From: Mytilus trossulus | Taxonomy: Eukaryota | Assembly: GCF_036588685.1 (NCBI RefSeq) | Contig: NC_086379.1 | Coordinates: 7,192,001 to 7,256,000 of the forward strand | Reading direction: 5' to 3' | Length of the DNA stretch: 64,000 bases | Shown: positions 778-52,751 of the stretch, one piece after another | Position numbering within the stretch: the first letter of the stretch is position 1 | Layout of the letters: every line of letters starts with the position of its first letter | Program-made: the position numbers and the translations under genes | The notes under the pieces: generated by a model | Told to the model about the DNA's origin: nothing | Database searches by the model: none | The model's input: the letters and a program-made list of their open reading frames with translations, nothing else

Positions 778-3645
778 ACTGTGTCTAAACCACATCGACA
801 AGAATGTGTTGACTCGATGGTATCAAACATCCGGCACGGTGTCGGAACGTTATTGGACAGAGAAAATGTTGATATCGTTTATTTATTTGTTATTTTTATG
901 ATATCGAAGAATGTGTACACATACATAACTATCTTCTATTGTAAGTTGTAATATTTTCTACAACCGTTCTATATAAACGGAGAAATAAGTAATAATGCAT
1001 GTCAACATGACGAATTAGTGAACCTTGCCTCGCATTTGTTAAATATCTCGTTAAATTGTACACACTGTACGGGGAGACAGGAATGAAAAGAAAGATATTG
1101 ACACGGAAATTACAAAACTAGCCACTTTGAGCACCTCAAAACTTGTATTTTTGTGTATGGAATGAAAGAAATCGGTCAATTTAAAATGAAAGAGGCTGGT
1201 TTGGTCAATGTTAACAATCCGTTTTTTTTTCTAGATTTCTCAAGGTAGAACCCGGTTTTGGCTAAGAAATAAAACGCACAATTGCATAACATAATTGAAC
1301 TTCGGCGTTTTATGGATCTTTTGAAAATGATGTCTTTCAGAGGACAACTTATTATTTATTTAAATCTGTAAACACTTGAATTCCTACTTTATTGAAACTA
1401 ATTTTTATTTTTATTTTTTGGCTTTCATAAAAAAACATCTTTACTCGGAAATTTATAGAAATGAAGGTTATCACGTAAATTGAGATTTTTAAAAGTTCTC
1501 TATACGTTTTTTTATATGCACATTGTAAATATAAGTGATACTTGAACTACAGTTAACGGTCATAATAATTGAACACGCACATTTGATATGTAAATTTCTT
1601 GCACAACAGAATGGTTATCTTTAAAAGTAATTAAATTTTACCAGGCAAACGTACGACAAATTCGCGCAAGCGTAACTCCCCGCTACCAAGTGGTGTAATC
1701 TTTTTAATGTTCGATTAAACTAGATCTTCTTAAAGCTAAGTGTTTATTATAAAACATGATAAGAAGACAAATGTTTTGAGACGATTTTTAGCTTTTCAAA
1801 AAAAAGAATTAAAACAAGATTTTTTTAGGGACTTCCCAGGTGGGGGTGCGGGGCGGACGACCTATATACCGCTTGGATTCCTCACAAATGTGATATACTA
1901 GTAACTAAATTGTGTACCAACTTCAGGTGCGATTAAACCCCGTTTGCATCTCTTACATTGTCCTACTAGTATTTTTAACTTCTAAACATATACATTTTAA
2001 CTTATTGTCTTCATTTTCTTCAAAAATAAAAAAATAAATCGTCTGTTTATTTATCATACTACATCAGACATTTATGGCATATACAGTGAACATGATAGTT
2101 TAGGATCCGCACTTTGCATACACTGATAAGTAAAGGTAAATTATTGTATAGATTGTAGTCTGATTTTGAGGACTTTTGATGTATTTTATTTACTGTAGAA
2201 TATTATGAATATTTTATACGCAAACTCAATCTATGTAATGAATATGAATGTATAACTTATGTATGGAAAAAATATAAAATAGATTTTTTTTTATAATAGA
2301 GTCCAGCGTTTTTCCCTTGACATTGGATCATTTTAAACACAGGGCCCCTTGTGTATTCTTCCCTGGGTTATACAAGATAAATTATATTCAGGTGATTTTC
2401 AATAAATGTATTTCAAGTCTAGAAAAAAAGAAACAAAAAGAAACAAAACAAACCCTCATCCTGTGAGTAAAATGGTTGTTCCTTAATGGTTGATATCCAT
2501 GATCAAGGTTAACATTTCGTGTTCAATAAAAATAAGTATTTGTGGTATAATTGGCATGGAGACAACTCTCCACGACAGACCAAATAACACATAAATCTAC
2601 AGCTACAGGTCACTATACGGCCTTCAACAATGAGCAAAACTAATACCGCATATTGAGCCGTAAAAGGCCCTGAAATCATAAATGTAAAACAATTCAAACG
2701 AGAAAAACAACTTTGTAACACAAGTCATTATCTCTTATACCATAAGTAATAGGTCAACTATATTTGCTCATTTGACTATCATATGACCTAGAACCTATCT
2801 TATTATTTAATTGGTAAATGTTAAGTTTTTATTTTATTTTTATATTTTGGTTGGTTTTAATAATTGTAATGTGTTCATGTCTGTCTAGCAGGTTTCATTA
2901 GACTTTGACTTGTTATGGTTCCATGAACAATGTTAAGTTCTTGTGATACTTTTACTAAATTATTTATCAGTCTTACAGATCTTAAAAATAGATTCAAAAT
3001 AACGAACATTCAAGCAGTCGCTCCATGTCAGTGCGAACACTCTTGTATAAATAATACATTGCAACTATATAGTATTTGTTTTGTCGAAAACACGCAATTG
3101 AACTTGTTTCACAATAACAGTCATATTTATCTTGAATTTCATTCGATGGACAATGTTATTAAGATCCGTGTTAGTGTTGTTTTTCAAAACAAAACCGGGT
3201 GATTGTGTAGTAAACAACATTGACCAAACCGGCCTCTTCCATTTTGATATGACCCATTTCCTCCATTCCATGCAGAGGAATACAAGTATTGAGGTGTTCA
3301 AAGTGGCTATTTTTGTAATCTCCGTGTCAATATATTTCTTTTCATACCTTTCTTCCTATATAATGTGAACAATTGAACGGGACATAAAACAAATTCTAAG
3401 CAAGGTTCACTCAATTCGTCATGTTGACATGCATTATTATTTATTTCTCCGTTTATATAGAACGGTTGTAGAAAATATTTCACCTCACAAAAGAAAATAG
3501 TCATGTATGTATACACATTCTTCGATATCATAAAAATAACAAATAAATAAACAGAAATCAACCTTTTCTCTGTCCAATAACGTTCCGTCGCAGTGCTGAA
3601 TATTATATACCAACAAGTTTTGCCGCTGTGGTTTAGACACAATGT
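778..3645. repeat. Diverged ~440-bp inverted repeat pair (~778-1215 and ~3215-3645)
   Basis: Collinear reverse-complement similarity, e.g. GGAACGTTATTGGACAGAGAAAA and CAACCGTTCTATATAAACGGAGAAATAA. Confidence 0.85.
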
Positions 3646-3957
3646 ATATGTTAGGAATAAGACAATTATCTTAAATATTTGTTCCTAATTTCATAACAGG
3701 ACACTAAAGGCTGGGTATCGAAATTATGATTTGATCAACTTATTGTTGGCTATCTAAAAAGGTTCAAAAACTTCTTAAACGCCCATACCCACGAACGTGG
3801 AATATTCAAAAACAATATTGACAACTACTGCTTTTATTAATTATAATTGACAGTCAATTATTTTTAAAGGTGAAAATCAGCCAATTCAAAGTTAGAATAT
3901 TTTCAAATTCAGGAATATATCTCCGCTTGTAAGTCACAGAATCCTTGTTCGGGTTAA

Positions 3958-4227
3958 AGTGGTACCCAACACTTTCACTAAAATTTATTTGGCTCGTTTA
4001 ATTTTCGTAAAACTTTGACAAATATTAACTTTGACCCTTTTACGAAAATATAAAAATTTCAAAAAATTTGAACCAACCATTTTATCAGAAAAACTACACT
4101 GGTTATATAGCAGTTTGACAAAGATCAATTTTGATCACTGAGAAGCTTAATATCCCCTTTACAACACAGCGAAATAAACGTTTATGTGACTTTACAGAGT
4201 TATCTCCCTGTGGTGTTAGGTACCACC
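3958..4227. mobile_element. TTAA-flanked MITE (Kolobok-like termini)
   Basis: TTAA|AGTGGTACCCAACAC ... GTGTTAGGTACCACC|TTAA. Confidence 0.75.
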
Positions 4228-4851
4228 TTAAGGTATTCTTTTTGTTTTGGGCTATAATGTCGTCAACTGTCAAAAAAATATTGAAATTCAAATAGTTTGG
4301 TCTCTAGCATTACTGAAAAATATTAACTACAAAGAACGCATCTGGCTCAGTAAAGTTAGAACTGTTAATGCTTTTATTTGTTAATATCAACAAAAAGGTA
4401 AACATGTAACATTTACACATGAAATAAACAATAAGTAGCTTACAAATGCACTCAAGTACAGCGATAGCAAAATGAATTACCATTTGTTGGTTTTGTTCAT
4501 TTAACGACAGTAATGTCAACTTTCTTTGAACTTTAAAATAAAACCGCTTACAGCTTACAAACTTTGGGAATCATTTCAAAGATAACTATTCCATGTATTC
4601 ACTGTGTTCCAAGTGGTCTACACGCATATTTAGAGTATAAGGTTATAGCTATGTTTTTATGGGTTGGCAAAGTGCATATGTTACCAATTGGAAATCAATA
4701 CCATCAATGAAAATAGCATCATTTAATGAGTTTGAGTGTCCCTTTGGTATCTTTTGTCCCTCTTTTTTTAAAGTCAAAATATATGTTTCCTTTGAATAAT
4801 CTTAATACATTTCCATATTTACAAACACAAAATCTTTTCTAGATACAAAGT

Positions 4852-12340: not shown

Positions 12341-12562
12341 TTTATTAATTAACCAGTCCAATATGAACTCTAGCCGGGCCAATATGAAGATTGAAAAAAG
12401 TGTGAAAATCTGACATTCAGGACTTCAATAGTAGTGATTTGAATATGTATCAATGAAAATTGAGGATTTTAATCAAAACAATAAAATAGTAACAATTTTA
12501 TTAAATAATCAACAGTAAATAAACACAACAAGTAAAAAACATGTTTTTATCTAGTTTTCAGA

Positions 12563-15024
12563 TTAAAGCTCTTGGCTGCAGTTTATAGTATTCTTTCTTT
12601 CCCCTGAGTATATGTTAATATTGAAAACACCACCTGTTATAGTTGCACCTGCAAACATGGCCATTGGGTTGTCATGTTTGTTAGCAGTTTGATTATTTGT
12701 ATTTGATACATTTGCATTTAAATTATTATGAACTAATGTATTTGAGTTTGAAAGTTCACAAGGTTCCTCTGAATCTGATGTCGTCTGTAAATCTGAGTTC
12801 GGCAACATGACCTTAGATATTGTGTGAGAAGCTTGTTGCTGTTGTTCAATAGACGGTACTGAATAATGAGTTAAGGTACTAATGCCTTTCCAGCCTCCTA
12901 ATTGAGCAACTTCATTGGCAGGTCTACCATTTTGAAGTAGTGTGGTAGCAAAAGTTTTACGTCCCGAATGATTAACCTTTCTTCCTTGAAGATCTCCTTT
13001 TTCTGCCATATTTTTTACCATTTTACCTAATTTATCTTTGCCTATGGTTTTGCGAGTGTACCATATTTCCTCATGTTTATTATCTAAAGGCCTCAAATAA
13101 AATCTATGTTCATCAGTTAATGTGTCTTGAGGTCTATGCCGTTTGTATTCCTTGTAAACATGAATAGGGCAATTACTTCCTCCTTCCCCGAAAATCTTTG
13201 GCGTAATATCCCGGAAATCCCTGCTTTTTGCTCCACTACGGGTTTTGGTGCTTCTTTCTGAAAAAAGTATGCTTATGTCAATATTTAAAGAAGAATTATC
13301 CTTCCTGTCTGTACAAAACTTTCACTTTTATATAACAAAAAACATGTATTGCATAGTAAATAAGATTTGTTTTGATAAATATAAAACAATGGTTAATATC
13401 CTTAAAAGCACAAATTACCAACTTTTGTCAGGACTGTTGTACATGTACATCCATTATCCACAGAAGTATATATTCTGTGATTTCTAAAAGATTAAAAATA
13501 GCAACTATTTAAATGATGGAAATCATAACATAATCTCACCATTAAATTCCAAATACTCCTTTCCATCAGATGTAGCTTTTAACTTGACATCTCCCCATGT
13601 CATGTTAACATGGTCTTGTCGACCTCGTAGACCAAAGTATGTTGCATTATTTAAAAACACAGCATTCAGTAATGCATCAGGGTTTTCTGGAAAAAGAAAA
13701 AAAAAGAACTTAACTAAAATACATGTATCTTAATGTAAATATCCAACTTAAAATAGTATTTAAAGGACAAATACTGTATCAAAATGCAAAAGACCTCTGG
13801 AGACACTCTCATTGTTCAAGACCTTATGTGTATTTTAAACATTTTCTATTAGAACAACCATTTAATAATCAGGGATGGATAGAGGGCGACAAGGAAATAA
13901 AATAATTTGTTTGCCACAAGGTTAGAAAAATGTTTAATTAAAAGTTACTGACTGACACGCTGGAATACAACATTTTTTTAAACTTACGTGTTCCAATAAT
14001 TCCTTTCTCCCTCAAGATTTGGATTTCCTCAGTCGTCAAAGGTTCAGCTCTGTTTGGCTTACTGCCCTTGCCCAATGACTTTAATGCCTTTCGCTTCGCT
14101 TCTAATACCCGTCTTGTGTGGTTGAACTCAGGATCCTTTTTAATACTGAAACATTAAAGAAAAGATATGCATAATATCTGACATGTAATTTTTGTATGTA
14201 CATGTTTTATACTTATAGCAAAGAGAAACCAAGGAATATTCATTGTACACAAGCTTAAGATCATCAAAACCACATTGACCCAGATGATATATATAGTTTT
14301 TACCAAAAAAAATGACACAAGGCTAAAATTAAAATATTGGCACTGAATATTCGAGTCATAATGCTTGACAGAATAATGCAAAGGCTATCATGCTATATCA
14401 AGACAAGGGAGTTACATGTCTCACAGATATCAAATAATCTACATGAAAATAATCGTACCTTATACTACTTTTTGAGTCCTTCAAATGTCTATCCAAGCTG
14501 TTGAACATAGAGGATAAAGAGTCAGGCTCATATTCGTCACCATTTTTCTTCAGGACTCCAAGAAAAAATCTTGATAACAGACTGTCCAAGTCTTTGGCAG
14601 GTATTTCCACTGAATCACGCATTTCTCCAACAGATATGAAAAAATCCAGCATCACTTTCAAGTCACTCTTTGTTTTAGTTTTTGTGTTCTTGTTAACACT
14701 TAAAGCTAGAAAAGAGTCAGTGTCTTCATCAGTGACAGAGCGAAACCTCTTGCTACTCGAGCTATTTTCTTTGTCTGATTCGTCAATCTCATGATTCTGT
14801 GCATTTTCAATGTCCTGCAGAATTTCATTTGGGAAGTTGAAATTCGCTGAATCAACTTCTTCCAGAATCAAATTTCCTTCCCCATTGACATCCGCAAGAT
14901 TTCTCTTGATGTACTCTGCCTCCCTATTAGATAAATCGTCGTAGTGAAAATAGTCTTCAACTAACGCATCCATCGCATCATCTATATTTTGTATAGAGCT
15001 ATTGCTCCATCGTTTTGTTGTCAT
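12563..15024 (-). CDS. Crypton-type (DUF3504/ZMYM-QRICH1-like) tyrosine recombinase, 521 aa; exons 15024-14459, 14145-13988, 13686-13540, 13257-12563
   Basis: GT-AG splicing gives a 1566-nt open frame. Motifs: YEPDSL, LEAKRKALKSLGKG..AEPLT, FGLRG (R), STKTR (K), CPI..Y, FYLRP, NHSGR (HxxR), GGW, THY (Y). Confidence 0.9.
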
Positions 15025-15418
15025 TTTCTCCTGTCAGACGACACTAGCCGTAGTTCTCTAGAGTTATCGGGATTTCAACCGATTAGTCTAGAGCTAATCG
15101 AATATGCTAATATTGGGCTTGCTACACCCGGGCCAATACGGAAAAATCCGTATTGGCCTTATAGGACAAAATTATCGATTTGGCAGTTTTACTCGTATTT
15201 AGTCAAATAAGCTCCAGTTAATTAATAATATATATTACAGTATCTAATACACTTATTGTAGAATATATAACACACTTATTATAGTATATAGTATAGTTTG
15301 ATTTGTATGTAACAGTTGCATTGTATTGCTGAGACTTTTGATGGAACTGTCAATGACAAAATGCTTTTCTTTATTTTAAGGTGATGATACTTTTTATCTA
15401 CATTTCCTTATATAGTAT

Positions 15419-17048
15419 TGTAAGCCACCCGAGAGCATCCTGTCCTATACTCGGTAGTTTACTTTAATAACACGTAAATACAATATGTGACTCCTGTAGC
15501 AACTCTACATTTGTATTAAACTTCCTAAATTACTTGTCAGGTATGGTCTTCAGGTTGTTTAATATGTATGTATTGAGCGATCCCTTGTATTCGAGTGTTA
15601 CTGAGCTAATTTTTGTTCCTAACGGCTTTCCATAGTTTTTATGTTTGAACGAGCGTCTTCCAGCATCTTTTGTTTTCATCAGTGTAAATTCATGTTCTTT
15701 TTATATGTATCATAGTTCAATTAAACAAAGTTATCTTTCCAATGTTAACAGTTTTTATTTGCTCACTGTTAAAAGTATGTAACATTATAACATCGTAAAA
15801 CAATATAAATAAACAGTTGCGTTCAAGTGTACTGAATCATAAATCCTTATAAATACATATTTGTGGTGTCCGACGTGGTGGGAGATAGCTTACTGTACAA
15901 AAGACGGCTAATTACATATCATTAAACTTCATTATGTTATCCTTATTCTCACCTAAAGGTTATTGTTACTTTATTTGTTTTCCAAGGTTTGAACTTGCCG
16001 CCAGCAAAACTTTGGGCTATCTGCCATTGCTGAGTGCTCGCGCGTTTATATACTAAATTGTAATTGTCACGTGACATACTAATCCAATGGAAACTTGTCC
16101 TTTCCGGGAAGCCGGAACTATAAAAATTTCAGATAATGAAAAACATGATATACATATCATCTTAAATTGTCCGAACATTGTCCTTATACATAAAATATCA
16201 AAACAAAGCTATAGCATCTGAAATATCGACAAAGAAGCTTGAAATAAACAATCGGACACCACTGCGCGCGCATTGATTTAGCAGACGATCTGCGTAATTA
16301 CATAATACGTAAATAACATACAACATAGTTCATTTCAACCATCTAAATATTTACAATATATTTGTGTCCGGCAGGGTATACTTATTAAAAATCTTATGTG
16401 TGGTATTAAAAATACAATATAAGATCAAATGTTCAGGGGACGAATTGGTATTTAAAGATATCAAAACACATGTTTCGGTCCCCACAAAAATGGCAGACGA
16501 CAAAGTCTCCGTAAATAAACAATTGCAGTTGAAGTAATTTTCTATGTATATCAGGCATATTAGACGTTTAAATATGAATATTTGGTTACAAGAAATGATC
16601 CTTAAATCTGGAATTACATGATATAAAGCATGTAGAAGGTAAGCCATGAGTAATTACATACATTCCCTGCCGTAACACTTGTACAACAAAATGTAAACAA
16701 ATGAAAAATTCATTTCACTTCCAGTGTTTTACGCATTAAAAATGTGTTATCCTTGATAATTGTCAACATCATCTTGAACCTATATACAAACATGAACTAG
16801 AAATTCATATCATAGCTGATGAAATGCTTCCCCCCTTTATATTTGGTAAACAAAAAAATGAAACTTTGGCCTGTGAAATCCATACATAAAAATAGTAAAT
16901 TAATGCCATATCTTTGATTAAAAAAATGTTTTACTTGTTCGTGCGAGCCAAGTTACTATGCGTAAGAACACAACCATCATGTTTAAAAGAATAATATTTC
17001 CTTTTTCTGAATTTATAATATCATAACAAGTACTTCCAATGCCTTACA
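15419..17048 (-). repeat. 3' LTR (1630 bp)
   Basis: Direct repeat of 24920-26549, preceded on the minus strand by the PPT. Confidence 0.97.
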
Positions 17049-17060
17049 CTTCCCCCAACT
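17049..17060 (-). promoter_or_regulatory. Polypurine tract
   Basis: AGTTGGGGGAAG abuts the 3' LTR on the minus strand. Confidence 0.8.
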
Positions 17061-17143
17061 TCAATATATATTAATTCTCCTGAATTAAAAAAAACAGTAT
17101 AACTATGTTATTTAAAAGAATTGTTCATAAATTGTCTTTCTCT

Positions 17144-17656
17144 TCATTGGTCTTCACCAAGTCTAAGTTGTACACCCACGGCATCATTTTTGTTCAAGAT
17201 AATGTCTGTTGATGTGTCTCTCTTTGATGATGACGCTTCAATCATATCAAGCAATTGTAAGGTGGTGGGATCGTCTGTTTTACTCTTAATGATATTGGCA
17301 ATTGCTTGGTACAGATAGTATCTAGACTTAACTGTCATTGTATTGCCCTCTGTTGATTGTGGGGTTTTCGTGCCTGGAAGTGCCAAAAAGTGATACTTTA
17401 ATAGAAGCTCCTCCTTTGAAAATTGAAGCTGTTTCCCGGTGTTTAACTCCAATGCAATGCTAGCATACTCCCAATTGAAATATCTTTGTTCAGGGGTCAT
17501 GTTTTTCCAGTTTTTCGGGGGCCATTTCACTTCAGCTGGTATGGTAATCAAAGTTACGATTTCTTCTTTTTCCCATTCCCTCCTCCCAGCTGGGAAAAGT
17601 GGCATCCCACCTCTCCTTAAAAGTTTGTCTGCTCTTTCACTGGCAGTGTAAAACTG
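17144..17656 (-). CDS. In-frame continuation of ORF3 beyond a single TAA (globular C-terminal domain, GGMPLFPAGRREW..WPPKNWK)
   Basis: Same frame as ORF3; 17 open codons lie between the TAA and the ATG at 17605. Confidence 0.65.
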   Translation of the reverse strand, partial: QFYTASERADKLLRRGGMPLFPAGRREWEKEEIVTLITIPAEVKWPPKNWKNMTPEQRYFNWEYASIALELNTGKQLQFSKEELLLKYHFLALPGTKTPQSTEGNTMTVKSRYYLYQAIANIIKSKTDDPTTLQLLDMIEASSSKRDTSTDIILNKNDAVGVQLRLGEDQ

Positions 17657-19345
17657 TTAACTTTGCAGGTTCTCTCCTTCCTGTAGTCTCATTAGTTCTG
17701 CTTCATTTGACCTGGTTTCTTCTGCTAATCTCTTGGTTTCTGCCTCCTCCTGTCTCCTTAGTTCTTCCTCTTTCATTCTAATTTCCTCATCCTGTTTGTG
17801 TTTTTCCCTTCTCTTTTGTTCTGCCTCCTTTAGTCTGACTTCCTCCTCCTGTTTCTGTTTTTCCTGCTTCTTACGTTCTTCCTCCTTCTGTCTGATCTCC
17901 TCCTGTTCCTGTTTTTCCTTTCTCTTTTGTTCTGCTTCCTTTAGTCTGACTTCCTCCTCCTGTTTCCGTGTTTCCTGCTCCTTATGTTCTTCCTCCTTCC
18001 GTTTAATCTCCTCCTGTTCCTGTTTTTCCTTTCTCTTTTGTTCTGCTTCCTTTAATCTGACTTCCTCCTCCTGTTTCCGTGTTTCCTGCTTCTTATGTTC
18101 TTCCTCCTTCCGTTTGATCTCCTCCTGTTCCTGTTTTTCCTTTCTCTTTTGTTCTGCTTCCTTTAGTCTGACTTCCTCCTCCTGTTTCTGTGTTTCCCGC
18201 TTCTTATGTTCTTCCTCTTTCCGTTTGATCTCCTCCTGTTCCTGTTTTTCCGTTCTCTTTTGTCCTTCCTCTGTTAATGGCATTTCCTCATCCTGTTTCT
18301 TGTAATCCTTTCCTTTCTTTATTTTCTTTGCCTTCTGTTCCTGGTGGTTAGTCTTTTTCTTTCTTTTCTCTACATATCTCTCTTCTTCTTTCTCGGTCGT
18401 CTTTCTACCCTTCTTCTGGCTTGTTGGTTCCTCTAAAATCTCGGGTTCTTCATTGTCGCTGTCGTCTTCTAAAATGATATCCGATGTTGATGGTGTTTTC
18501 AGTGGTGATAGTTGATTTGTGGCGGCTTTTGTCTGTTTTCCTGGGAATAATTCGCCTGATGTTTTTATATCCGTTATATACTCCTCCTTTATTGATAATT
18601 TCCTAGCCACTACAGGAGTCACTATAGACTTTAGTTTACCGTCTATCGATACAGAGAAGGTATGTGATCCTGCGTACTTTGTGTTAACTAGTGCTGTCAT
18701 CCTTCTAATCAGAGCGTCAAGCATTTTTTGGTCTCTAAGAACGGAGTCATTCAAATGGATCATATAAAATCTTATGGACACTCCAAGGTCCAATTTAAAA
18801 ATGGCTGTAGAGTCCCCAAGTCCCAAAGTTAGTTGCTGGAGGGCCAGCCCTTCATAAATAGTGGGGCGTGTTGGTGAGTAAGATCCATTGGGTTTCTCCG
18901 ACTCAACCTCTTCTTCTTGTGTACCTTTTACCATCTCCTTCGGACACTTCCACCCTACAGTCCATTCCTCTTTCTTTCTGTTGGTGTTGTCCACCCTGTT
19001 TAAAAATTCAAGAACCTCAATCCTGGCTTTCATTGCTTCTTGTGAATTCTCATTTGATGGTAGGATTACCTTAGCATATGTCTCTGGATAGTTTGCCATC
19101 CAAAACCCATTGTTTTCGCTCAGGAAGCTATAAGGCATCAGTTCTATTTTACTGCGGTGGTGAGCCATGACATGCTCCTTAAGGTCAACCATCCTCCTGT
19201 AGGACTTCTCCTCAGGACACCAAACACAAATGACCGAAAGCCTTTTGTGTGGGGCAGCTGCCAGATGATTTTTCAGTTGTCTCCTTGTCCTAAACGTCAT
19301 GGGACACAGCCAACACTTTGCCTCAATTTGGGATGATGGTCTCAT
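17657..19345 (-). CDS. Retrotransposon ORF3: two C2H2-type zinc fingers + K/E/Q-rich 40-aa repeat coiled coil
   Basis: 562-aa ORF between pol and the 3' LTR; CWLC..H..H and CVWC..H..HH; about four 120-bp tandem repeats at ~17770-18260. Confidence 0.85.
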   Translation of the reverse strand: MRPSSQIEAKCWLCPMTFRTRRQLKNHLAAAPHKRLSVICVWCPEEKSYRRMVDLKEHVMAHHRSKIELMPYSFLSENNGFWMANYPETYAKVILPSNENSQEAMKARIEVLEFLNRVDNTNRKKEEWTVGWKCPKEMVKGTQEEEVESEKPNGSYSPTRPTIYEGLALQQLTLGLGDSTAIFKLDLGVSIRFYMIHLNDSVLRDQKMLDALIRRMTALVNTKYAGSHTFSVSIDGKLKSIVTPVVARKLSIKEEYITDIKTSGELFPGKQTKAATNQLSPLKTPSTSDIILEDDSDNEEPEILEEPTSQKKGRKTTEKEEERYVEKRKKKTNHQEQKAKKIKKGKDYKKQDEEMPLTEEGQKRTEKQEQEEIKRKEEEHKKRETQKQEEEVRLKEAEQKRKEKQEQEEIKRKEEEHKKQETRKQEEEVRLKEAEQKRKEKQEQEEIKRKEEEHKEQETRKQEEEVRLKEAEQKRKEKQEQEEIRQKEEERKKQEKQKQEEEVRLKEAEQKRREKHKQDEEIRMKEEELRRQEEAETKRLAEETRSNEAELMRLQEGENLQS

Positions 19346-19894
19346 TCTGAAATTGAATCATCAATTATAAATCCCTCCACCATACAACATATATTAATAC
19401 AATACATAATATCATGTAGTGTCCTGTAGTGTGACTATATTTGTTTGTGTGTTTAAAATCCTCCCCCCATATGGCATATGCTGGTAGTAAATGGATCAAG
19501 CTAAGTTTCAGTCTAAAAATATGATATCCACCCCCTTGGTCTCCCTATTTCAAAAATCTCAAGCCTCCTCAAGACAGTAAGTTGTCGTTAATTGCTTTCC
19601 GCCGCGCAACTTGCGCATAAAAAAAACGCTTGGCAGTAGTTTAATCTGCCATTCCCCTGGCAGGAAGATTCATCCTTCCCTTACAGCCAATAATATGTCC
19701 TGAGAAACAATGGCCATTTGTCTCCCTTACATATTCTTCCAGAGTGGATCCAACTCTAGGAATTCCATCATGACTTTCTCCAGTCTGAGAAAAGTCAAAC
19801 AGTTACTCTTAAACATAGTAACTCATCAAAACAATTAAAAACGTAACAACTTGTACAACTAATTTCGGCTATTCAAACAACGTTAAAGGGCATC

Positions 19895-22800
19895 TCAAAC
19901 CTTCCTACTGGAGAACCAAGTGGGCGGATTCCGTCCTTGATAGGGCAGTAGTCTATCAATGTGGTAGACCTTCCCTGGCTGTTTCTTTGACCTTCTCACA
20001 AGGTAAGTGATGTCGTCAATTTTCCTTGTAACAACATATGGTCCTTTCCATTTTGATGTCAACTTATGACAAATTCCCTTTTTCTTCGATGCATCATAAA
20101 GCCATACAGCTTGACCTACTTGTAATTCGCGCTTTACTGCTTTCAAGTCATAGTGACGTTTTTGATACTCAGAATTCTGCTTAAGATGTTTCCTAGCAAG
20201 TACATGTGACTTTGACATTGCGTCCTGTAATTCATTTACATATTTATCTGTTTCAGGGGAAGTGGATTCGTTTGGTCCATCAGGGCGTGGAATAACAGCT
20301 TCCATAGGAAGAAATATGTTTCTGCCAAACATCATCATGTTAGGGGTCTGTCCTGTACTGGCGTGAACTGATGATCTGTATGCCATCATAACCTGTGGCA
20401 AAATCTCATCCCAGTTTCTCTGATCATTTTGACAATAAAATGTTAGCATGCTTAGGAGTGTTCTGTTAAATCTTTCTACGCTTCCGTTGGACTGGGGGTG
20501 TTGACTTGTACTTCTAGTTTTGTCAATTTTAAGTAGATCACACAGATCTTGAAACAGCTTTGCTTCGAAAGACCTTCCTTGATCAGAGTGGAGCTGTAAT
20601 GGTGAACCAAACCTACAAATAAATTCATTCACGATGGTACGGGCAATGGTCAGGGATTCCTGGTCCGGAATAGCATATGCTTCAGTCCATTTAGAAAAGC
20701 AGTCGCAAAGGACCAGAACATAGCGGTTTTGTCGTTTTGTTAACGGAAGTGGACCAAGAATATCAATCGCCACACGTTCCATAGGCTCGCCAACCAAGTA
20801 TTGACCCAATGGAGCCTTGTTCCGCTTCAGTGATTTCCTAGCAGCACACTGGTCACATTCCTTGCAGTACCTTGTGATGGAGCTTTTCATAGCTGGCCAG
20901 TAAAAGAGTTTCTGGATCCTACTTAGCATTTTATCTGGTCCTAAATGACCTGCAGATGGAACGTCATGAAAATACTTGAAGACTGTCTTTTGGTGTGATT
21001 TTGGTACCAGGAGCTGCAATTTGAAGTTGTCTACATCGTCTTTATCAGAACAATAAAATTTTCTATAAAGCATGCCATTGTTTATTGTTAGCCTATCCCA
21101 TTGTCGCCATATTGTCTTCTGGAATGATGTTCCTTTTGATACTTGGTCCCAGTCAGGTTTATTTTTCTTTTCTTGAAGATATGTCACAATGAGTGACATG
21201 TCTAGGTCTTCCAATTGGCTTTGTCTGATACTATCTGGGTCCCATCCATCAATGCAGTAACCACTTGTAGCACTATACTGATTTCCTGTCTGACTTCTTG
21301 TACATACTCGTACTATTTCTATTCTTGGTGTTGGTTCTTCATTTTCGTGTAACTCCTGGTTAACAAAATCAGTTTCTTCCAGTTGGATTTCGTCTGTTTC
21401 ATCGTCGCTTGCGTGGTTTCCAGATTCTTGTCTCTCGCATGATTTACAAGGTCTTCTGGACAGAGCATCGGCATTTGAGTGTTTCCTTCCAGCTCTGTGT
21501 GTTACTGTCAAATTGTAAGTTCCCAGTTCTTCGAGCCATCTGGCTGTTTGACCAGTGGGTTTCTTTAGATTTTTCATCCATGATACAGCTGCGTTATCTG
21601 TGCGCAGCAAAACTTCCTGGCCATATAGATAATGATGAAATGTCTTTAGTGCTATAATTACAGCAAGTAGCTCTTTTCGGGTTACACAGTATGCCTGTTC
21701 ATGTATGTTCATAGATTTGCTCATGTATGCTATGACTCGTTCAAGACCATCTTGAATTTGTGACAACACTGCTCCGACAGCCTTATCACTTGCATCTGTG
21801 TCAAGTATGAATGGCAAATTTGGCAGTGGGTAGGCAAGTACAGGTGTACTTGTTAAAGCGCTTTTCAACTGTTGAAATGCCTTTTGACACTCATCATTCC
21901 AAGCAAAACGGCTATTCTTTTCACAAATTTTGTGCATTGGTCTTGCAATTGCTGCAAATCCCTTAACAAATCGCCTATAGTAAGAGCAAAGTCCTAAAAA
22001 GCTGCGCACCTGTTTTGCAGATTTAGGGACAGGCCAGTCATCTATTGCTTTTGTTTTCTCTAGATCAGTGGAAATTCCCTCCTCGGACACGATATGCCCA
22101 AGGAACCTAACTTGTTTTTGAAAGAAAATGCATTTGGCAGGTTTCAATTTCAGATGTGCGTTTTGTAGACGTATACAGATTCTTTCCAGCCTCCCAAGAC
22201 CCTCTTCAAATGTCGAACTTATTGATATGATGTCGTCCATGTAGAGTAATAGTTCTTTCCACTGTAGCCCTCTGAGAACATTTTCCATCAGACGCTCAAA
22301 AGTAGATGGTGAATTTGCAAGTCCAAAGGGCATGACAGTGAACTGGTATAACCCTAAACTTGTCAGAAATGCGGTCTTTTCCTTGTCTTCAGGAGCCATG
22401 CCGATTTGCCAAAATCCTGAATTTAAGTCCATTGATCCGAAGAATTTTCCCCCAGCGAGCGAGTCGAGGCACTCGTCTACTCTCGGAATCGGGTAGGAAT
22501 CTTTTTTCGTGACGTCATTCAAAATTCTGTAATCAACACAGCACCTAGGGCTGCCATTTTTCTTCATTACAAGGACTATATTTGATGCCCAAGGACTAGA
22601 AGATGGTTCGATGATTCCTTTGTCCAACATCCGATTGACTTCTGATTTTTCCATCTCTTGCTTTCCAAGTGGCATACGTCTAGATCTCTGCCTAAAGGGT
22701 ACTGCATTTCCTGTATTTATTCTATGTGTTACAAGGTCTGTCCTCCCTATGTCATCATCTGTCCTTGAAAATACATTTTGGTACTGTGAAAGGGGTCTGG

Positions 22801-23704
22801 AGAGTTGTTGTCTTTGGTCCTCATTTATATAAGTTGAACTCCTTTTTAATAAGTCAGTAAGATGTTCTGGTATTTCTTCACTAGCTGTAAAGCAATCTTT
22901 CTGTAGTGTTCTAATCTGCTCTGGTTTCAAATCATGCTCAGTATATGATTCACATGTTCCTATTGTTTCCTTTTTATACAGTTTAACTTCGTCGTCACCA
23001 TAGTTGACAACATTAACAAAGTGTACTTGGTCTTGTGTATTTATAATCCCAGGTATGGTTAATGTAGACTTGGCTGTTCCTGTCGTGCCCTCTATTAATC
23101 CGTATTCTGTTAAATGATTGACTCCCGGTATTTCTACAGGCATCATAGTACTCGTCATTGGAGGAATTGTCATGTTGTCCTTAATTTCTACTTTGCAAAT
23201 CATATTTGCCTTCCCTCCAATCCAACATTGTATTTCCTGGTTGTGGATCGTGTGTAAGACCATGCGCTGATAATTTACTTTACTAACTTCCTTTAGTAAG
23301 AAATCCTGTCCAAGTATTCCATCCTGATTGATATTGCATATCATAAAATTTTGACTGAAAATTTCTTGACCAAGCATTAGTTCTAAAATGATCGATCCAA
23401 TGGCAAAAACCTTATTGCCATTAACGTCAAATATTTCGGATTTGTTTGGTACTAAAGAACACCAAACATTTGAAGGCAATTTTTCGTAAACATCAATAGA
23501 TAATATTGACGCAGTTGAGCCACTGTCAATTAAAAAGTTGACAGGAAACCCAAAAATTAATCCATTTGTATAAAACCCGTTATCCCAATTATCATCTGTT
23601 TCCCCTATATGTCCTGTCCGGACATGTTTTTCTCCCTTCATATCAGGCCTTTTATCTTCTGTCACTAGCTCACGACCTATTGAGCCAGCGTTCTGTCGTT
23701 TCCC
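19895..23704 (-). CDS. pol: Pol polyprotein (protease, RT, RNase H, integrase), reached by -1 frameshift
   Basis: LIDSGS protease, YMDD RT, DTDAS RNase H, HHCC + DDE integrase and a GPY motif, with no stops. Confidence 0.97.
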   Translation of the reverse strand, partial: GKRQNAGSIGRELVTEDKRPDMKGEKHVRTGHIGETDDNWDNGFYTNGLIFGFPVNFLIDSGSTASILSIDVYEKLPSNVWCSLVPNKSEIFDVNGNKVFAIGSIILELMLGQEIFSQNFMICNINQDGILGQDFLLKEVSKVNYQRMVLHTIHNQEIQCWIGGKANMICKVEIKDNMTIPPMTSTMMPVEIPGVNHLTEYGLIEGTTGTAKSTLTIPGIINTQDQVHFVNVVNYGDDEVKLYKKETIGTCESYTEHDLKPEQIRTLQKDCFTASEEIPEHLTDLLKRSSTYINEDQRQQLSRPLSQYQNVFSRTDDDIGRTDLVTHRINTGNAVPFRQRSRRMPLGKQEMEKSEVNRMLDKGIIEPSSSPWASNIVLVMKKNGSPRCCVDYRILNDVTKKDSYPIPRVDECLDSLAGGKFFGSMDLNSGFWQIGMAPEDKEKTAFLTSLGLYQFTVMPFGLANSPSTFERLMENVLRGLQWKELLLYMDDIISISSTFEEGLGRLERICIRLQNAHLKLKPAKCIFFQKQVRFLGHIVSEEGISTDLEKTKAIDDWPVPKSAKQVRSFLGLCSYYRRFVKGFAAIARPMHKICEKNSRFAWNDECQKAFQQLKSALTSTPVLAYPLPNLPFILDTDASDKAVGAVLSQIQDGLERVIAYMSKSMNIHEQAYCVTRKELLAVIIALKTFHHYLYGQEVLLRTDNAAVSWMKNLKKPTGQTARWLEELGTYNLTVTHRAGRKHSNADALSRRPCKSCERQESGNHASDDETDEIQLEETDFVNQELHENEEPTPRIEIVRVCTRSQTGNQYSATSGYCIDGWDPDSIRQSQLEDLDMSLIVTYLQEKKNKPDWDQVSKGTSFQKTIWRQWDRLTINNGMLYRKFYCSDKDDVDNFKLQLLVPKSHQKTVFKYFHDVPSAGHLGPDKMLSRIQKLFYWPAMKSSITRYCKECDQCAARKSLKRNKAPLGQYLVGEPMERVAIDILGPLPLTKRQNRYVLVLCDCFSKWTEAYAIPDQESLTIARTIVNEFICRFGSPLQLHSDQGRSFEAKLFQDLCDLLKIDKTRSTSQHPQSNGSVERFNRTLLSMLTFYCQNDQRNWDEILPQVMMAYRSSVHASTGQTPNMMMFGRNIFLPMEAVIPRPDGPNESTSPETDKYVNELQDAMSKSHVLARKHLKQNSEYQKRHYDLKAVKRELQVGQAVWLYDASKKKGICHKLTSKWKGPYVVTRKIDDITYLVRRSKKQPGKVYHIDRLLPYQGRNPPTWFSSRKV
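23664..23704 (-). promoter_or_regulatory. -1 ribosomal frameshift signal (G GGA AAC + downstream stem-loop)
   Basis: The slippery heptamer at 23704-23698 is in gag phase. Its -1 frame is continuous with pol. A stem CTGGCTCA/TGAGCTAG starts 9 nt downstream. Confidence 0.85.
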
Positions 23705-24741
23705 TGGATGTGATTAAAAGAGGTATTTTGTCTTTGGTTGCCCTGGAAATTCCCTCTAGCTCTTTGGTTGTTTTTGTGTGGACAGTTCCTCATAAAATGG
23801 TCTGGGGAGTTACATCCGTAGCATCTGCCAGTATTTGCCCTCTTTGATTCCCGACTTCCATGTCCTTGTTCCAGCTTTGCTATCCTATCTTGTAATTCCT
23901 GCAAATTGCTATGGTAATCCTTTTCACTCATGTGTCCTTCGATGTCCTTTGATTCCACAGCTCTGATCATTGTTGACTTCTTTTTGTCTTGATCCCCCAA
24001 AATTGACTCATACCTCTCTATTACATCAACAGCGTCTGCTATTGTGTGGCATTCCTTGTCAATACAACGACATTTCATTTCCACAGTTATTACCTTGAAT
24101 AACTGGTTTAGTGCAAGAGACTCCTGCGCTGCTAGGTCCAGGTCATAGTACGCCTTTTGCGCTAGTTGCCTGATATCATCCCCCACCTCAGCTATGCTTT
24201 CCCCTGCCATGCGCCTGCGCATCTCTAACTTTGAGAGCCAACGATTTTTGTGTTTTGAACTCCCAAACCTCTGATCTAACTTTTGTGTTAGCATTTGGTA
24301 TGTGCGCCTGTCGCCAGCAGACAAGCTCATGTAGTATGTCCTTGCTTGGCCCCTTAAGCTAGCTGCCAAAAACAACAGTTTTGTACGGTTTCCCCATTGT
24401 CCCAATTCAGCGCAGTCCTCAAAATGCGACAAGTATTCCTCCCAACAATCCTTACCAGAGAAGGGCTCAGGTTTAAGTGTTACCTTTGGTGGGCCAATTG
24501 GTTGCATATTATGATTACCCCTACCATTCCTATCGTCAAAATCATGTCTCTGATATTCATCCCGTCCTTTATGTCTCTGATCTACTTCATCACCATGACC
24601 TTGTAAAATTGATTCCCTATCAAAGTCGTCATTGTCATCAGTGTGTATTTGATCCCCTTGTCCTAAGTCATCTAAATCTAAATCCCTTTCCCTACGGAAA
24701 TTTATTTCAGGGTCTGGGGAGTTCCTACCAGTATCAGCCAT
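23677..24741 (-). CDS. gag: Gag (capsid + CCHC nucleocapsid)
   Basis: 354 aa; KPEPFSG..WEEYLSHFE capsid-type motif; CYGCNSPDHFMRNC zinc knuckle. Confidence 0.95.
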   Translation of the reverse strand: MADTGRNSPDPEINFRRERDLDLDDLGQGDQIHTDDNDDFDRESILQGHGDEVDQRHKGRDEYQRHDFDDRNGRGNHNMQPIGPPKVTLKPEPFSGKDCWEEYLSHFEDCAELGQWGNRTKLLFLAASLRGQARTYYMSLSAGDRRTYQMLTQKLDQRFGSSKHKNRWLSKLEMRRRMAGESIAEVGDDIRQLAQKAYYDLDLAAQESLALNQLFKVITVEMKCRCIDKECHTIADAVDVIERYESILGDQDKKKSTMIRAVESKDIEGHMSEKDYHSNLQELQDRIAKLEQGHGSRESKRANTGRCYGCNSPDHFMRNCPHKNNQRARGNFQGNQRQNTSFNHIQGNDRTLAQ

Positions 24742-24898
24742 ATTCTAAATAAAGACTTTTTATTTTATTTGTTGTTTCATATTCTATAGTTATAATAAAT
24801 TTTTGTACAGTAAATCCACCACGTCGGGCTTAAACCACGTTTTTAAGTTGACAGGTTATTCCAAGGTTCGTATCCTGGATGCTAATTAGAATTTTAGC

Positions 24899-24916
24899 AT
24901 CCCACTTCTGACACCA
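24899..24916 (-). promoter_or_regulatory. Primer binding site complementary to the tRNA-Leu 3' end
   Basis: TGGTGTCAGAAGTGGGAT lies 3 nt inside the 5' LTR boundary and is complementary to ...ATCCCACTTCTGACACCA of tRNA-Leu. Confidence 0.85.
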
Positions 24917-24919
24917 AAT

Positions 24920-26549
24920 TGTAAGCCACCCGAGAGCATCCTGTCCTATACTCGGTAGTTTACTTTAATAACACGTAAATACAATATGTGACTCCTGTAG
25001 CAACTCTACATTTGTATTAAACTTCCTAAATTACTTGTCAGGTATGGTCTTCAGGTTGTTTAATATGTATGTATTGAGCGATCCCTTGTATTCGAGTGTT
25101 ACTGAGCTAATTTTTGTTCCTAACGGCTTTCCATAGTTTTTATGTTTGAACGAGCGTCTTCCAGCATCTATTGTTTTCATCAGTGTAAATTCATGTTCTT
25201 TTTATATGTATCATAGTTCAATTAAACAAAGTTATCTTTCCAATGTTAACAGTTTTTATTTGCTCACTGTTAAAAGTATGTAACATTATAACATCGTAAA
25301 ACAATATAAATAAACAGTTGCGTTCAAGTGTACTGAATCATAAATCCTTATAAATACATATTTGTGGTGTCCGACGTGGTGGGAGATAGCTTACTGTACA
25401 AAAGACGGCTAATTACATATCATTAAACTTCATTATGTTATCCTTATTCTCACCTAAAGGTTATTGTTACTTTATTTGTTTTCCAAGGTTTGAACTTGCC
25501 GCCAGCAAAACTTTGGGCTATCTGCCATTGCTGAGTGCTCGCGCGTTTATATACTAAATTGTAATTGTCACGTGACATACTAATCCAATGGAAACTTGTC
25601 CTTTCCGGGAAGCCGGAACTATAAAAATTTCAGATAATGAAAAACATGATATACATATCATCTTAAATTGTCCGAACATTGTCCTTATACATAAAATATC
25701 AAAACAAAGCTATAGCATCTGAAATATCGACAAAGAAGCTTGAAATAAACAATCGGACACCACTGCGCGCGCATTGATTTAGCAGACGATCTGCGTAATT
25801 ACATAATACGTAAATAACATACAACATAGTTCATTTCAACCATCTAAATATTTACAATATATTTGTGTCCGGCAGGGTATACTTATTAAAAATCTTATGT
25901 GTGGTATTAAAAATACAATATAAGATCAAATGTTCAGGGGACGAATTGGTATTTAAAGATATCAAAACACATGTTTCGGTCCCCACAAAAATGGCAGACG
26001 ACAAAATCTCCGTAAATAAACAATTGCAGTTGAAGTAATTTTCTATGTATATCAGGCATATTAGACGTTTAAATATGAATATTTGGTTACAAGAAATGAT
26101 CCTTAAATCTGGAATTACATGATATAAAGCATGTAGAAGGTAAGCCATGAGTAATTACATACATTCCCTGCCGTAACACTTGTACAACAAAATGTAAACA
26201 AATGAAAAATTCATTTCACTTCCAGTGTTTTACGCATTAAAAATGTGTTATCCTTGATAATTGTCAACATCATCTTGAACCTATATACAAACATGAACTA
26301 GAAATTCATATCATAGCTGATGAAATGCTTCCCCCCTTTATATTTGGTAAACAAAAAAATGAAACTTTGGCCTGTGAAATCCATACATAAAAATAGTAAA
26401 TTAATGCCATATCTTTGATTAAAAAAATGTTTTACTTGTTCGTGCGAGCCAAGTTACTATGCGTAAGAACACAACCATCATGTTTAAAAGAATAATATTT
26501 CCTTTTTCTGAATTTATAATATCATAACAAGTACTTCCAATGCCTTACA
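24920..26549 (-). repeat. 5' LTR (1630 bp)
   Basis: Direct repeat of 15419-17048, adjacent to the PBS. Confidence 0.97.
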
Positions 26550-46045: not shown

Positions 46046-47087
46046 AAACTAGAGGCTCTCAAGAGCCTGTATCGCTCACCTGATTCTACTTTTTTTTTGA
46101 AATCATATAAAAAGATAATTTGGCTACAAAGTAACAAAACTTGGCCAGCCACTCATTAAGAAAGGAACCTTTATGCTATGTTTGGTTTCATTCAATTCAG
46201 TGGTTCACTAAAAGTAGACATTTGTATGTATTTCCCTTAGGGTCCCTAGTTAAACCAATTCCACTACTGGCCACCATCTTGGATGATGGATCAGCTGCAA
46301 AGTAACAACACTTGGTCAGCATGTCATAAGGAACATTCATACTATGTATCGTTGCATTCCATTCAGTGATTCTCTAAAAGCAGTCATTTGTATGCATGTC
46401 CAATAGGGTCTTATATGTTAAACTTAGTCCCCCACTGGCAGCCACATGGGATGATGGATCGGCTACTAAATAACAACGCTTGGTCAACACCTCATAAGGA
46501 ACATTCATGCTAGGTATGGTTTCATTCCATTCAGTGGTTCTCTAATAGCAGTCATTTGCATGTTTTCCCATATGGTCCTATGTTAAACGAAGTCCCCCGC
46601 TGGCGGCCATCTTGGATGATGGTTCGGCTACAAAGTAACAACACTTGGTCAGCGCCTAATAAGGAACATTCAAACCATAGTTTGTTTCATTCCATTTAGT
46701 GATTCTCTAAAAGAAGTAATTTTTATGCATTTCCCATAGGGTCCTATGTTAAACTAAGTCCCCCGCTGGCGGCCATCTTGGATAATGGATCGGCTACAAA
46801 AGAACAACGCTTGGTCAACACCTCATAAGGAACATTCATGTCATATATGGTTTCATTTCATTCAGTGGTTCTCTACAAGAAGTTCAAAATGTAAAAAGTT
46901 CGCTTTTCTCATCACTTTGGCGTTTGTCGCCCGTCGTCGGCATACACTTTTCACATTTTGAACTTCTTTTAGAGAACAACTGAATAGAATGAAACCAAAC
47001 ATGGCATGAATGTTCCTAATGAGGTGCTGCACAAGTGTTGTTACCTTGTAGCCGAGCCGATCCATCATCAAAGATGGCAGCCAGCAC
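46046..47087. mobile_element. Helentron/HINE-type non-autonomous element with ~160-bp internal tandem repeats, plus an inverted partial copy
   Basis: Terminal hairpin AGGCTCTCAAGAGCCT + GCTCACCTG, about five tandem units; 46900-47087 is inverted. Confidence 0.6.
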
Positions 47088-51539: not shown

Positions 51540-51835
51540 CCTTATTCTCTTATCTATATATCTTAGACCCCTTTTATTCTCTTATCTATATATATCTTAG
51601 ACCCCTTTTATTTTCTTATCTATATATATCTTAGACCCCTTTTATTCTCTTATCTATATATATCTTAGACCCCTTTTATTCTCTTATCTATATATATCTT
51701 AGACCCCTTTTATTCTCTTATCTATATATCTTAGACCCCTTTTATTCTCTTATCTATATATATCTTAGACCCCTTTTATTCTCTAATCTATATATCTTAG
51801 TCTTATCTATATATCTTAGACCCCTTTTATTCTCT
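51540..51835. repeat. ~33-35-bp minisatellite (TTAGACCCCTTTTATTCTCTTATCTATATATATC)n
   Basis: About eight tandem copies. Confidence 0.95.
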
Positions 51836-52751
51836 TTTTCTTAATATTTTAAGCATCGTATTATCCTCTATTCTTTATTTTTCTCGGCCAATTAGTATCT
51901 GTTCTGTTATCACCAACCAGACTCTCGCCTATCTATGACGACCATTACTGTAACCTCCAGATACTTCGTTTTTTAGGTGTTGTTTTGCATTGTTGATATG
52001 AACGTCTCTAGGTCTAAACCAAATGAACCATATCTTATTGTCCCCAGACAAAGTTGACATGATAATATAGATTTGGCAATTATTTTTAAATCCATTTTGA
52101 TTTTATAGATCTTCACGTGTTCTGGTATTTGTACATACGTGGCTTTGATATTTGTTTGCTTTGAGTGTTTCTGATGAAGGCTGCTTCGGACATGAAACAT
52201 TTACAAAGTCTTATCTACATTGATTAAGCCATCATAAAAATAATATTTATAAAAGTATATGGGTTTAGCAATAAAATGAATCTAAATGGATGATGAGTTG
52301 TCTCATTGGCACTCCTGCCACATCTTCCTTTATCTATAAAATATGTTTTTATTAGAATTCTTTAATTGTTTAATACCTATAATATGATAATTCACCTAGT
52401 GGTATTAACTAGTGTTTGATTTGAAAAAAAAAATAAATAGAATCGAACTGTTGGTCTTTAAAAAACAACATAAAAATTACATTGGTTCAAATATTTAGTA
52501 ACAATTTAAATACACACAAAACATGTCTTCCACTATTCTTTTTAGCATGATCAGTAAATAAAAAAAGATATTCAGTATGTTTATTTGAGTTATTAATTCT
52601 TCTTTAATACTCTTGTAATGGCAAAACATCTTCTTCCTCCGTAATATGTACATAATGTTTAAGTTGCTGTAACTTTATCTTTAAGGAATCATCTGGAAGG
52701 ATTTTCAAAATCACAAAAGAATTTCCCAGACAGTCACTGAGCTCAAATGAC

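Follow-up and report, generated by a model that had tools for sequence, protein, structure and literature searches.

The 64,000-nt stretch of Mytilus trossulus DNA analysed here (the window) carries on its minus strand a Gypsy element that spans positions 26549..15419 in the order LTR-gag-pol-spacer-ORF3-LTR (Table 1). The element displays the defining characters of Ty3/Gypsy (Metaviridae), i.e., paired TG...CA LTRs, a target duplication, a primer binding site (PBS), a polypurine tract, and gag followed by PR-RT-RH-IN. The target duplication (4 nt, ATAC) flanks both element ends and, together with an LTR pair that differs at two positions, indicates that the insertion is very young. The GTCACGTGAC palindrome of the candidate core promoter is common to the LTRs of the window element, of a second family in the same genome (family B, see below), and of the metagenomic locus L053. 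The PBS, TGGTGTCAGAAGTGGGAT, is presumably primed by tRNA-Leu, and the leader behind it is predicted to pair with the R/U5 segment in a duplex of -44.7 kcal/mol, compared with a mean of -20.2 and a minimum of -36.4 for shuffled sequences. The GGGAAAC/T motif at the gag-pol overlap is present in families A (the window family), C, and D and in L053, and was not found in the stretch of family B that was examined.

Table 1. Features of the Gypsy element, in window coordinates
Feature	Position	Strand	Remarks
5' LTR	24920..26549	-	1630 nt, TG...CA
Candidate core promoter, GTCACGTGAC palindrome + TATATAA	25546..25576	-	putative function
Candidate splice donor AG/GTGAG	25448..25455	-	GT at 25453; about 100 nt past TATA
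R/U5 segment, complementary to leader behind PBS	25370..25411	-	predicted duplex
PBS TGGTGTCAGAAGTGGGAT	24899..24916	-	identical in families A-D
Leader partner of R/U5 segment	24800..24839	-	
gag, 354 aa	23677..24741	-	Retrotrans_gag E 5e-4, zf-CCHC E 0.019, both under Pfam cut-off
GGGAAAC, probable -1 frameshift site	23698..23704	-	gag-pol overlap; sequence motif
pol, 1272 open codons	19895..23713	-	PR-RT-RH-IN (Pfam)
Non-coding spacer, pol to ORF3	19346..19894	-	549 nt
Candidate splice acceptor TTTCAG	19347..19352	-	1 nt upstream of ATG
ORF3 Z module, aa 1-135	18941..19345	-	C2H2 fingers aa 11-63 + conserved helical extension
ORF3 middle alpha/beta (M) domain, aa 160-262	18560..18868	-	model; no fold match >Z 4.2
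KRKKK, NLS-like run	18353..18367	-	
Five 37-aa K/E/Q/R repeats	17696..18250	-	111-nt period; family-specific linker
Premature in-frame TAA	17657..17659	-	cuts ORF3 into 562 aa + 170-aa C domain, same frame
ORF3 C domain, 170 aa	17144..17656	-	mainly helical; model; without known fold
AATTCRGGAGAATT conserved motif + polypurine tract	17049..17086	-	
3' LTR	15419..17048	-	2 mismatches vs 5' LTR

ORF3 (19345..17144) runs sense to the element between the pol stop (19895) and the 3' LTR. The sequence-only reading that preceded this analysis had described a sense ORF in the env position, with two C2H2-like fingers, a KRKKK basic run, no evident signal peptide or transmembrane (TM) segment, and a TTTCAG just before the ATG, and each of these features was recovered: the finger ligands are C11/C14/H27/H33 and C40/C43/H58/H63, the maximum 19-residue hydropathy in an open copy is 1.06, and the TTTCAG ends 1 nt upstream of the start codon, which lies at 19345 rather than at 19348 as first given. 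Other parts of that description required correction, since the frame taken to be continuous is interrupted by a premature TAA in this copy, and repeats put at 40 aa measure 37 aa (111 nt). The charged coiled coil presented as a defining part is likewise not general, as the region is K/E/Q/R-rich in just 6 of 80 full-length homologues and the linker is often P/S/T-rich. The premature stop, the middle domain, and the analogous zinc-finger ORFs of other Gypsy clades had been missed. A copy ~99% identical to the window element (C8), which has a frameshift in pol and four 37-aa repeat units, is open over 696 aa of ORF3, and eight database proteins of the ORF3 family read through the stop position, as do related copies; the TAA is therefore either a lesion of the window copy or an assembly error.

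Across the family, ORF3 follows a single order, namely a C2H2 pair with a helical extension, a middle alpha/beta domain, a variable linker, and a helical C domain. AlphaFold2 models built with about 95 sequences gave a mainly helical C domain (pLDDT 92.8, pTM 0.86) and an N part (pLDDT 88.8, pTM 0.55) that is consistent with two separate units, the finger pair with its extension (aa 8-135) and the middle domain (aa 160-262). A fold search of PDB and BFVD produced no match at E<=0.001, and structure comparison with VIA reached best Z scores of 4.5 for the C domain and 4.2 for the N part, with the extension (aa 66-135) barely covered; these negative results fall short of establishing a new fold. 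The linker ranges from 16 to more than 400 residues and is K/E-rich, acidic, or P/S/T-rich depending on the family, and an NLS-like K[KR]x[KR] occurs in 56 of 80 full-length homologues. Maximum hydropathy is 0.95-1.13 across families A-D, with 6 of 80 homologues reaching 1.6 and 2 of 80 reaching 1.9, a level suggestive of a TM segment; by these sequence properties the ORF3 product is not an envelope protein. Neither the window protein nor any of the 95 family members scanned contains a BTB_2 domain, and a search of low power for fused forms of 1438-4105 aa found none.

The fingers are of the classical C2H2 type (C-x2-C...H-x3-5-H in a beta-beta-alpha fold) and their eight zinc ligands are 97-100% conserved across the family, but neither finger reaches the Pfam cut-off (21.5 versus 25.2 bits). 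By structure, aa 6-65 match DNA-bound fingers at weak Z scores of 3.2-4.0, and by sequence the top PDB hits are fingers of CTCF (E 2.9e-5). In the Atlas, the N part matches generic short C2H2 clusters only and the C domain has no match; zf-met occurs in 11% of the top Atlas cluster, and zf-met and zf-C2H2_jaz give weak matches in 1 and 2 of 95 members, respectively. Contact positions could be parsed in 65 of 94 sequences; in finger 2, position -1 is R in 47 of these and position +3 is D/E in 61, both positions usually contacting bases. Finger 1 has mostly H-x4/5-H spacing and variable contact residues, and the two fingers are joined by an xRLxVI-type linker instead of the canonical TGEKP type of classical C2H2 proteins. 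These latter sequence features may fit RNA or protein binding equally well.

A C-domain search of the M. trossulus genome gave 37 matches among 47 candidates. Eleven of the 30 loci examined pass a test for an open finger-to-C pattern and one of these stops inside the C domain, leaving 10 of 30 complete. The complete copies fall into four families (A-D), and relative to the window element pol is about 52% identical, the ORF3 N part 28-30%, and the C part 32-44%. Pol lies upstream of ORF3 in 10 of the 11 copies inspected with flanks, the eleventh being internally deleted with spacer and LTR sequence retained, and 8 of 9 tested copies yield LTR pairs that are 99.15-100% identical. Amongst six metagenomic loci, pol was seen in both with enough upstream DNA (L053 and L055), one other reads ORF3-LTR-gag, and three are too short. 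The placement of homologues between pol and an LTR, proposed earlier as a check, thus holds wherever flanks are readable. The seven carriers group as one branch (support 100/100) in a 47-row RT/RNase H tree; when ORF3 and RT trees of six elements are compared, family A and L053 are the sole pair resolved in all three.

A profile search recovered 172 homologue clusters at E<=1e-30 and 890 at E<=0.001, and the clusters weaker than E 1e-30 probably include generic fingers. The finger module and the C domain occur together in 80 of 162 homologous proteins. Named hosts among 30 clusters are Mytilus species, Mercenaria mercenaria, Potamilus streckersoni, and Thiodiazotropha bins (which we take to contain lucinid clam host DNA), most homologues having no name, and a GTDB scan gave 65 pattern hits with none confirmed. 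Public annotations label homologues as host "C2H2-type domain-containing proteins", which, with 20 of 30 loci broken, might suggest a captured host gene or a neutral passenger. However, ORF3 is intronless, lies inside young LTR pairs, is fixed across one RT clade rather than captured in this copy only, and is under selection (see below), and broken copies are usual for transposons. Capture or neutrality is extremely improbable here and stands refuted at the family level; a single-copy member may have been domesticated somewhere. The data support ORF3 as an accessory gene, distinct from env, that belongs to one Gypsy RT clade as a whole.

Within families, 38 of 42 pairwise dN/dS comparisons were finite and 36 of these were at most 0.35 (mostly 0.1-0.3), with the caveats that three pairs have saturated dS and that the comparisons are not independent because pairs share a reference; the two higher values (0.61 and 0.79) rest on <=4 synonymous changes each. 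ORF3 is under purifying selection in both domains, contrary to the neutral evolution that the sequence-only reading had named as its possible undoing, and pairwise tests of either domain gave no sign of fast adaptive change. Divergence of the two halves is discordant in some copies (e.g., N dS about 0.5 with C saturated in L004, L014, and L050; dS 0.024 for N versus 0.19 for C in L021), which suggests recombination in the linker, or module swapping, in these sequences. In the mosaic subfamily, LTRs are interrupted or missing.

The position of the acceptor offers a route of expression for the third gene. A YAG lies 0-1 nt upstream of the ORF3 ATG in 9 of 9 lineages, versus 52 of 555 background ATGs inside pol. 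L053, with an LTR about 70% identical, retains the family A donor, and families B, C, and D each have a TATA with AG/GT 100-125 nt downstream (C and D read by eye). As the acceptor is conserved across lineages, a spliced ORF3 mRNA, which had been suggested from TTTCAG, is strongly implied at the sequence level. Four sequencing runs contained no junction at the acceptor, at a depth too low to exclude the spliced form. The two raw-read runs gave 84 and 155 reads, mainly on the LTR, and contigs from two runs, which are RNA by guess only, cross the acceptor unspliced; among 20 holders of the sequence in 10 studies, none is on record as RNA. Higher ORF3 contig depth in run X2 was considered as support for splicing and rejected, because the rise begins elsewhere than at the acceptor.

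An RT search gave 109 scored matches, the best of which (62-66%) are the carrier families, and 40 copies were sampled from the next tier (47-57%), picked by eye for family spread and including near-copies. A C2H2 module lies downstream of integrase in 29 of these 40, as 25 separate ORFs and four in-frame fusions to pol; of the other 11, 10 lack the module and one has a spurious 37-aa segment. Each of the 16 separate ORFs tested is enclosed by LTRs 98.7-100% identical to each other, and most of these ORFs start behind an acceptor-like AG. The C-terminal modules differ among clades. BTB_2 passes the Pfam cut-off in five of the 16 ORFs tested (L058, L062, L064, L069, and L076), with KCTD5 as the nearest solved relative of the tail (E 1.6e-10) and RT clade support of 99/98, and RT clade support is 99/96 for a DPR..PSSY..LP.GT tail domain and 100/98 for short-form tails; coiled-coil forms make no supported RT group (41/78). 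The plan of fingers first, variable linker, and C-terminal module is also found in at least four other RT clades. The M and C domains of the window family are absent from the other-clade ORFs sampled, and profile comparison of its N part with one BTB-clade ORF gave a probability of 5.6%, covering the fingers only.

The BTB tail brings in a counter-defence reading, in which the fingers would capture a silencing protein of the host, which the C domain would route to inactivation or degradation in the style of a Cul3 adaptor, with no action on nucleic acid. The neighbouring-clade tail is closest to the BTB domains of Cul3-adaptor KCTD proteins, and the module swapping suggested by discordant N and C divergence would suit such an adaptor. 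However, the window family has no BTB domain, and its two domains show purifying selection with no sign, in pairwise tests, of fast adaptive change. This role is quite improbable for ORF3.

A different role is raised by the four fusions (L089, L091, L093, and L096, of one RT clade), in which a two-finger module is joined in frame to the integrase C-terminus. Such an arrangement would suit a reading in which ORF3 joins the pre-integration complex and its fingers bring that complex to chromatin or preferred target DNA, as the chromodomains of chromovirus integrases do. The fused fingers directly follow R..R..P..F.DF, a motif that ends pol in several other clades, and the modules retain their own Met, with an AG shortly upstream in two of three families; they may thus be made separately too, which weakens the case for a tether. 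In addition, the resemblance of the fused fingers to the window family appears confined to the C2H2 pattern, and no insertion-site preference was seen among nine carrier-clade insertions, which share no flank sequence except one weak 38-nt match and no tRNA gene, and which carry target duplications that are ordinary AT-rich 4-mers. Tethering is accordingly considered unlikely.

Because base-contacting residues are retained in finger 2 and DNA-binding proteins are the closest relatives by structure, the preferred reading is that ORF3 encodes a spliced, nuclear, DNA-binding self-regulator of the cognate LTR, a tentative proposal with a reasonable chance of being right that falls short of even. 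Transcription would start in the 5' LTR, and the donor about 100 nt downstream would be joined to the acceptor at 19347, removing gag and pol. Basic runs would carry the protein into the nucleus, where the C2H2 pair, chiefly finger 2, would read a short DNA site in cognate LTRs and the C domain, attached by a flexible linker whose composition is immaterial, would recruit a host cofactor or oligomerise, a role that the KCTD-type BTB would fill at the same position in the neighbouring clade. By binding its own LTR the protein would keep that LTR transcribed, with the fingers as address and the terminal module as effector; the effector role rests on analogy, since the C domain has no fold match. 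The truncated window allele, which keeps the fingers and has lost the effector, would be a null or a competitor reliant on other copies in trans. Foamy virus Tas (PMC8670036) and VANC (PMC6719617), as described in the available portions of those papers, are counted as precedents. A scan of all 7- and 8-mers found ACTGGACA in 4 of 6 carrier LTRs versus 0 of 19 others; motifs enriched in this way can be shared by descent, and the scan identified no binding site for ORF3.

The best precedent belongs to another reading, in which ORF3, like CERV or Rev, would bind and multimerise on unspliced genomic RNA, license its export, and balance spliced against full-length transcripts. CERV is spliced and nuclear, with a KRKK-type NLS, three folded domains on flexible linkers, and a zinc finger (PMC10309623, in the text available). 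The spacing of finger 1 and the weak zf-met and zf-C2H2_jaz matches would favor RNA, and the long non-coding spacer upstream of the acceptor and the conserved R-leader helix could provide targets. Nevertheless, ORF3 has no sequence or fold link to CERV (a C2H2 pair in place of a C4 loop), the six spacers share no structured element (windowed z-scores <=-4 occur in L055 only), family D has no NES-like patterns, and finger 2 retains DNA-type contact residues. An Rfam search gave no match. RNA export is possible but rather doubtful.

The usual picture of animal LTR retrotransposons is one of gag-pol elements, some of which also carry env, and for very few of their accessory proteins has a function been tested. 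ORF3 is a stable, selected non-env gene of a clade that spans several bivalve orders, with two confidently modelled domains that match no known fold, and most of the related Gypsy copies sampled from the M. trossulus genome show a zinc-finger-first design as well. Many bivalve Gypsy elements might by extension encode zinc-finger-addressed regulators with swappable effector tails (a helical fold, a KCTD-type BTB, or an integrase fusion), a generalization that we consider doubtful. If true, such regulators would be the transposon's counterpart to the zinc-finger silencers of the host, and would give animal retrotransposons a sequence-specific means of countering silencing. The proteins form an expressible set with which the self-regulation of animal retrotransposons, or their resistance to silencing, can be studied, and some gene models annotated in mussels and clams as "C2H2-type" host genes belong to transposons.

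No C2H2 or BTB third ORF was found described for mollusc Gypsy elements in the open-access literature searched, and the available parts of PMC8220671, PMC6238403 (including four supplements), PMC11952523, PMC2774666, PMC12440569, PMC6719617, and PMC10294476 contain no description of ORF3. Repbase consensus entries may already annotate it.

Amongst known systems, the env of errantiviruses and other env-bearing Gypsy elements is expressed by splicing and, like ORF3, occupies the third-ORF position, between pol and the 3' LTR, and begins at an acceptor (a candidate one in ORF3); ORF3 differs in having N-terminal zinc fingers and neither a signal peptide nor a TM segment. The env of errantivirus-type Gypsy elements is of baculoviral origin, according to the accessible text of PMC12440569. 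VANC, from Arabidopsis VANDAL transposons, is an anti-silencing protein whose proposed action is sequence-specific and directed at its own transposon family. It differs from ORF3 in belonging to a plant DNA transposon, in recognizing short tandem motifs, and in its unrelated sequence (PMC6719617, in part). The sORF1 and sORF2 of the Drosophila MDG1 group are non-env accessory ORFs of Gypsy elements under selection; unlike ORF3 they are small and lie upstream of gag, sORF2 being a membrane fusogen and sORF1 possibly a helix-turn-helix protein (PMC11952523, in part). The ZnF-BTB (KCTD-type) third ORF of the neighbouring clade is distinguished from ORF3 by its C-terminal BTB_2. We know of no C2H2 pair in foamy virus Tas, and no homology test between Tas and ORF3 was positive. 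Tas is a retroelement-encoded regulator near the 3' LTR that is made from spliced transcripts and activates the LTR, and it differs from ORF3 in belonging to Retroviridae and being expressed mainly from an internal promoter (available portions of PMC8670036 and PMC13220597). CERV comes from Cer1, a Gypsy element of C. elegans, and is the one tested nuclear accessory protein of an animal Gypsy element that was found; it acts in RNA export and is dispensable for transcription, which counts against the LTR-regulator reading of ORF3. Its N-terminal exons are shared with gag, and it contains a C4 loop and a G-protein-like domain (PMC10309623, in part), whereas ORF3 has its own ATG behind a candidate acceptor, two C2H2 fingers, and middle and C domains that are unrelated, the C model being mainly helical and matching no fold above Z 4.5. 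No homology between ORF3 and CERV was detected in sequence or fold. The two are nonetheless alike as non-env accessory proteins of animal Gypsy elements with folded domains on flexible linkers, a basic NLS, and a zinc-binding part, and the spliced mRNA and nuclear location described for CERV (PMC10309623, in part) are those that ORF3 would be predicted to share.

Behind the primer binding site of the Gypsy element, the leader contains a stretch complementary to a segment of R/U5, and the same complementarity is found at equivalent sites in L033, L037 and L045 and in the metagenome locus L053. The letters of the paired segments vary from family to family while their complementarity is kept. The predicted duplex is strong in family A (the window element) and in L053, at -45 kcal/mol and below all 200 shuffles; it is borderline relative to shuffles in families B and C, and in family D it is no stronger than shuffles. 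The R/U5 segment overlaps a possible splice site. About 25 nt after the TATA, ATGGC opens a short upstream ORF in the window element, and an equivalent ORF occurs at the corresponding place in families B and D and in L053; these ORFs have 8-18 codons and stop ahead of the candidate donor.

All four sequencing runs contain reads or contigs in which a match to a short stretch of the element gives way to other sequence, at two positions; their source is probably a transcribed host region with element fragments. Among the ORF3 relatives, L004, L005, L014 and L050 are mosaic copies, with identity to the window of ~88% in the N part and ~67-70% in the C domain. In the Mytilus gene model P0243, ankyrin repeats and a STAND NTPase are combined with a portion of the C domain, a fusion that may be an annotation merge. 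Elsewhere in the window, an intron-containing, Crypton-like tyrosine recombinase gene matches the Pfam entries QRICH1 and Phage_integrase, and its first ATG has the Gypsy element ~390 nt upstream.

Coordinates of features in the window and in other Gypsy copies
Feature	Sequence	Position
R/U5 segment	window	25411-25370
Complementary leader	window	24839-24800
ATGGC upstream ORF	window	25528 onward
Reads/contigs passing into other sequence	window	18763, 20518
Crypton-like gene (minus strand)	window	about 12380-15140
34-nt minisatellite; satellite of ~166 nt, both orientations	window	51508-51914, 46162-46900, 59475-60044
Dispersed short repeats, SINE-like copies	window	2526, 6607, 45170, 50113, 50707, 59087
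Finger fusion in pol tail	L089, L091, L093, L096	about 3270-4300 (from RT start)
Tandem finger ORFs	L083	3835-4884
	L088	

Other Gypsy copies of this genome also carry fingers. In four copies (L089, L091, L093, L096) the integrase C-terminus continues in frame into a pair of C2H2 fingers with an acidic tail, and two tandem, mutually related ORFs with two fingers each follow pol in L083 and L088. In a neighbouring clade (L058, L062, L064, L069, L076), the third ORF, enclosed by young LTR pairs, comprises a zinc finger, a linker and a KCTD-type BTB domain, the finger and BTB parts lying in different frames in L076. The closest relative of this BTB domain is KCTD5, and the third ORF could possibly encode a transposon-borne Cul3 adaptor or an oligomer.
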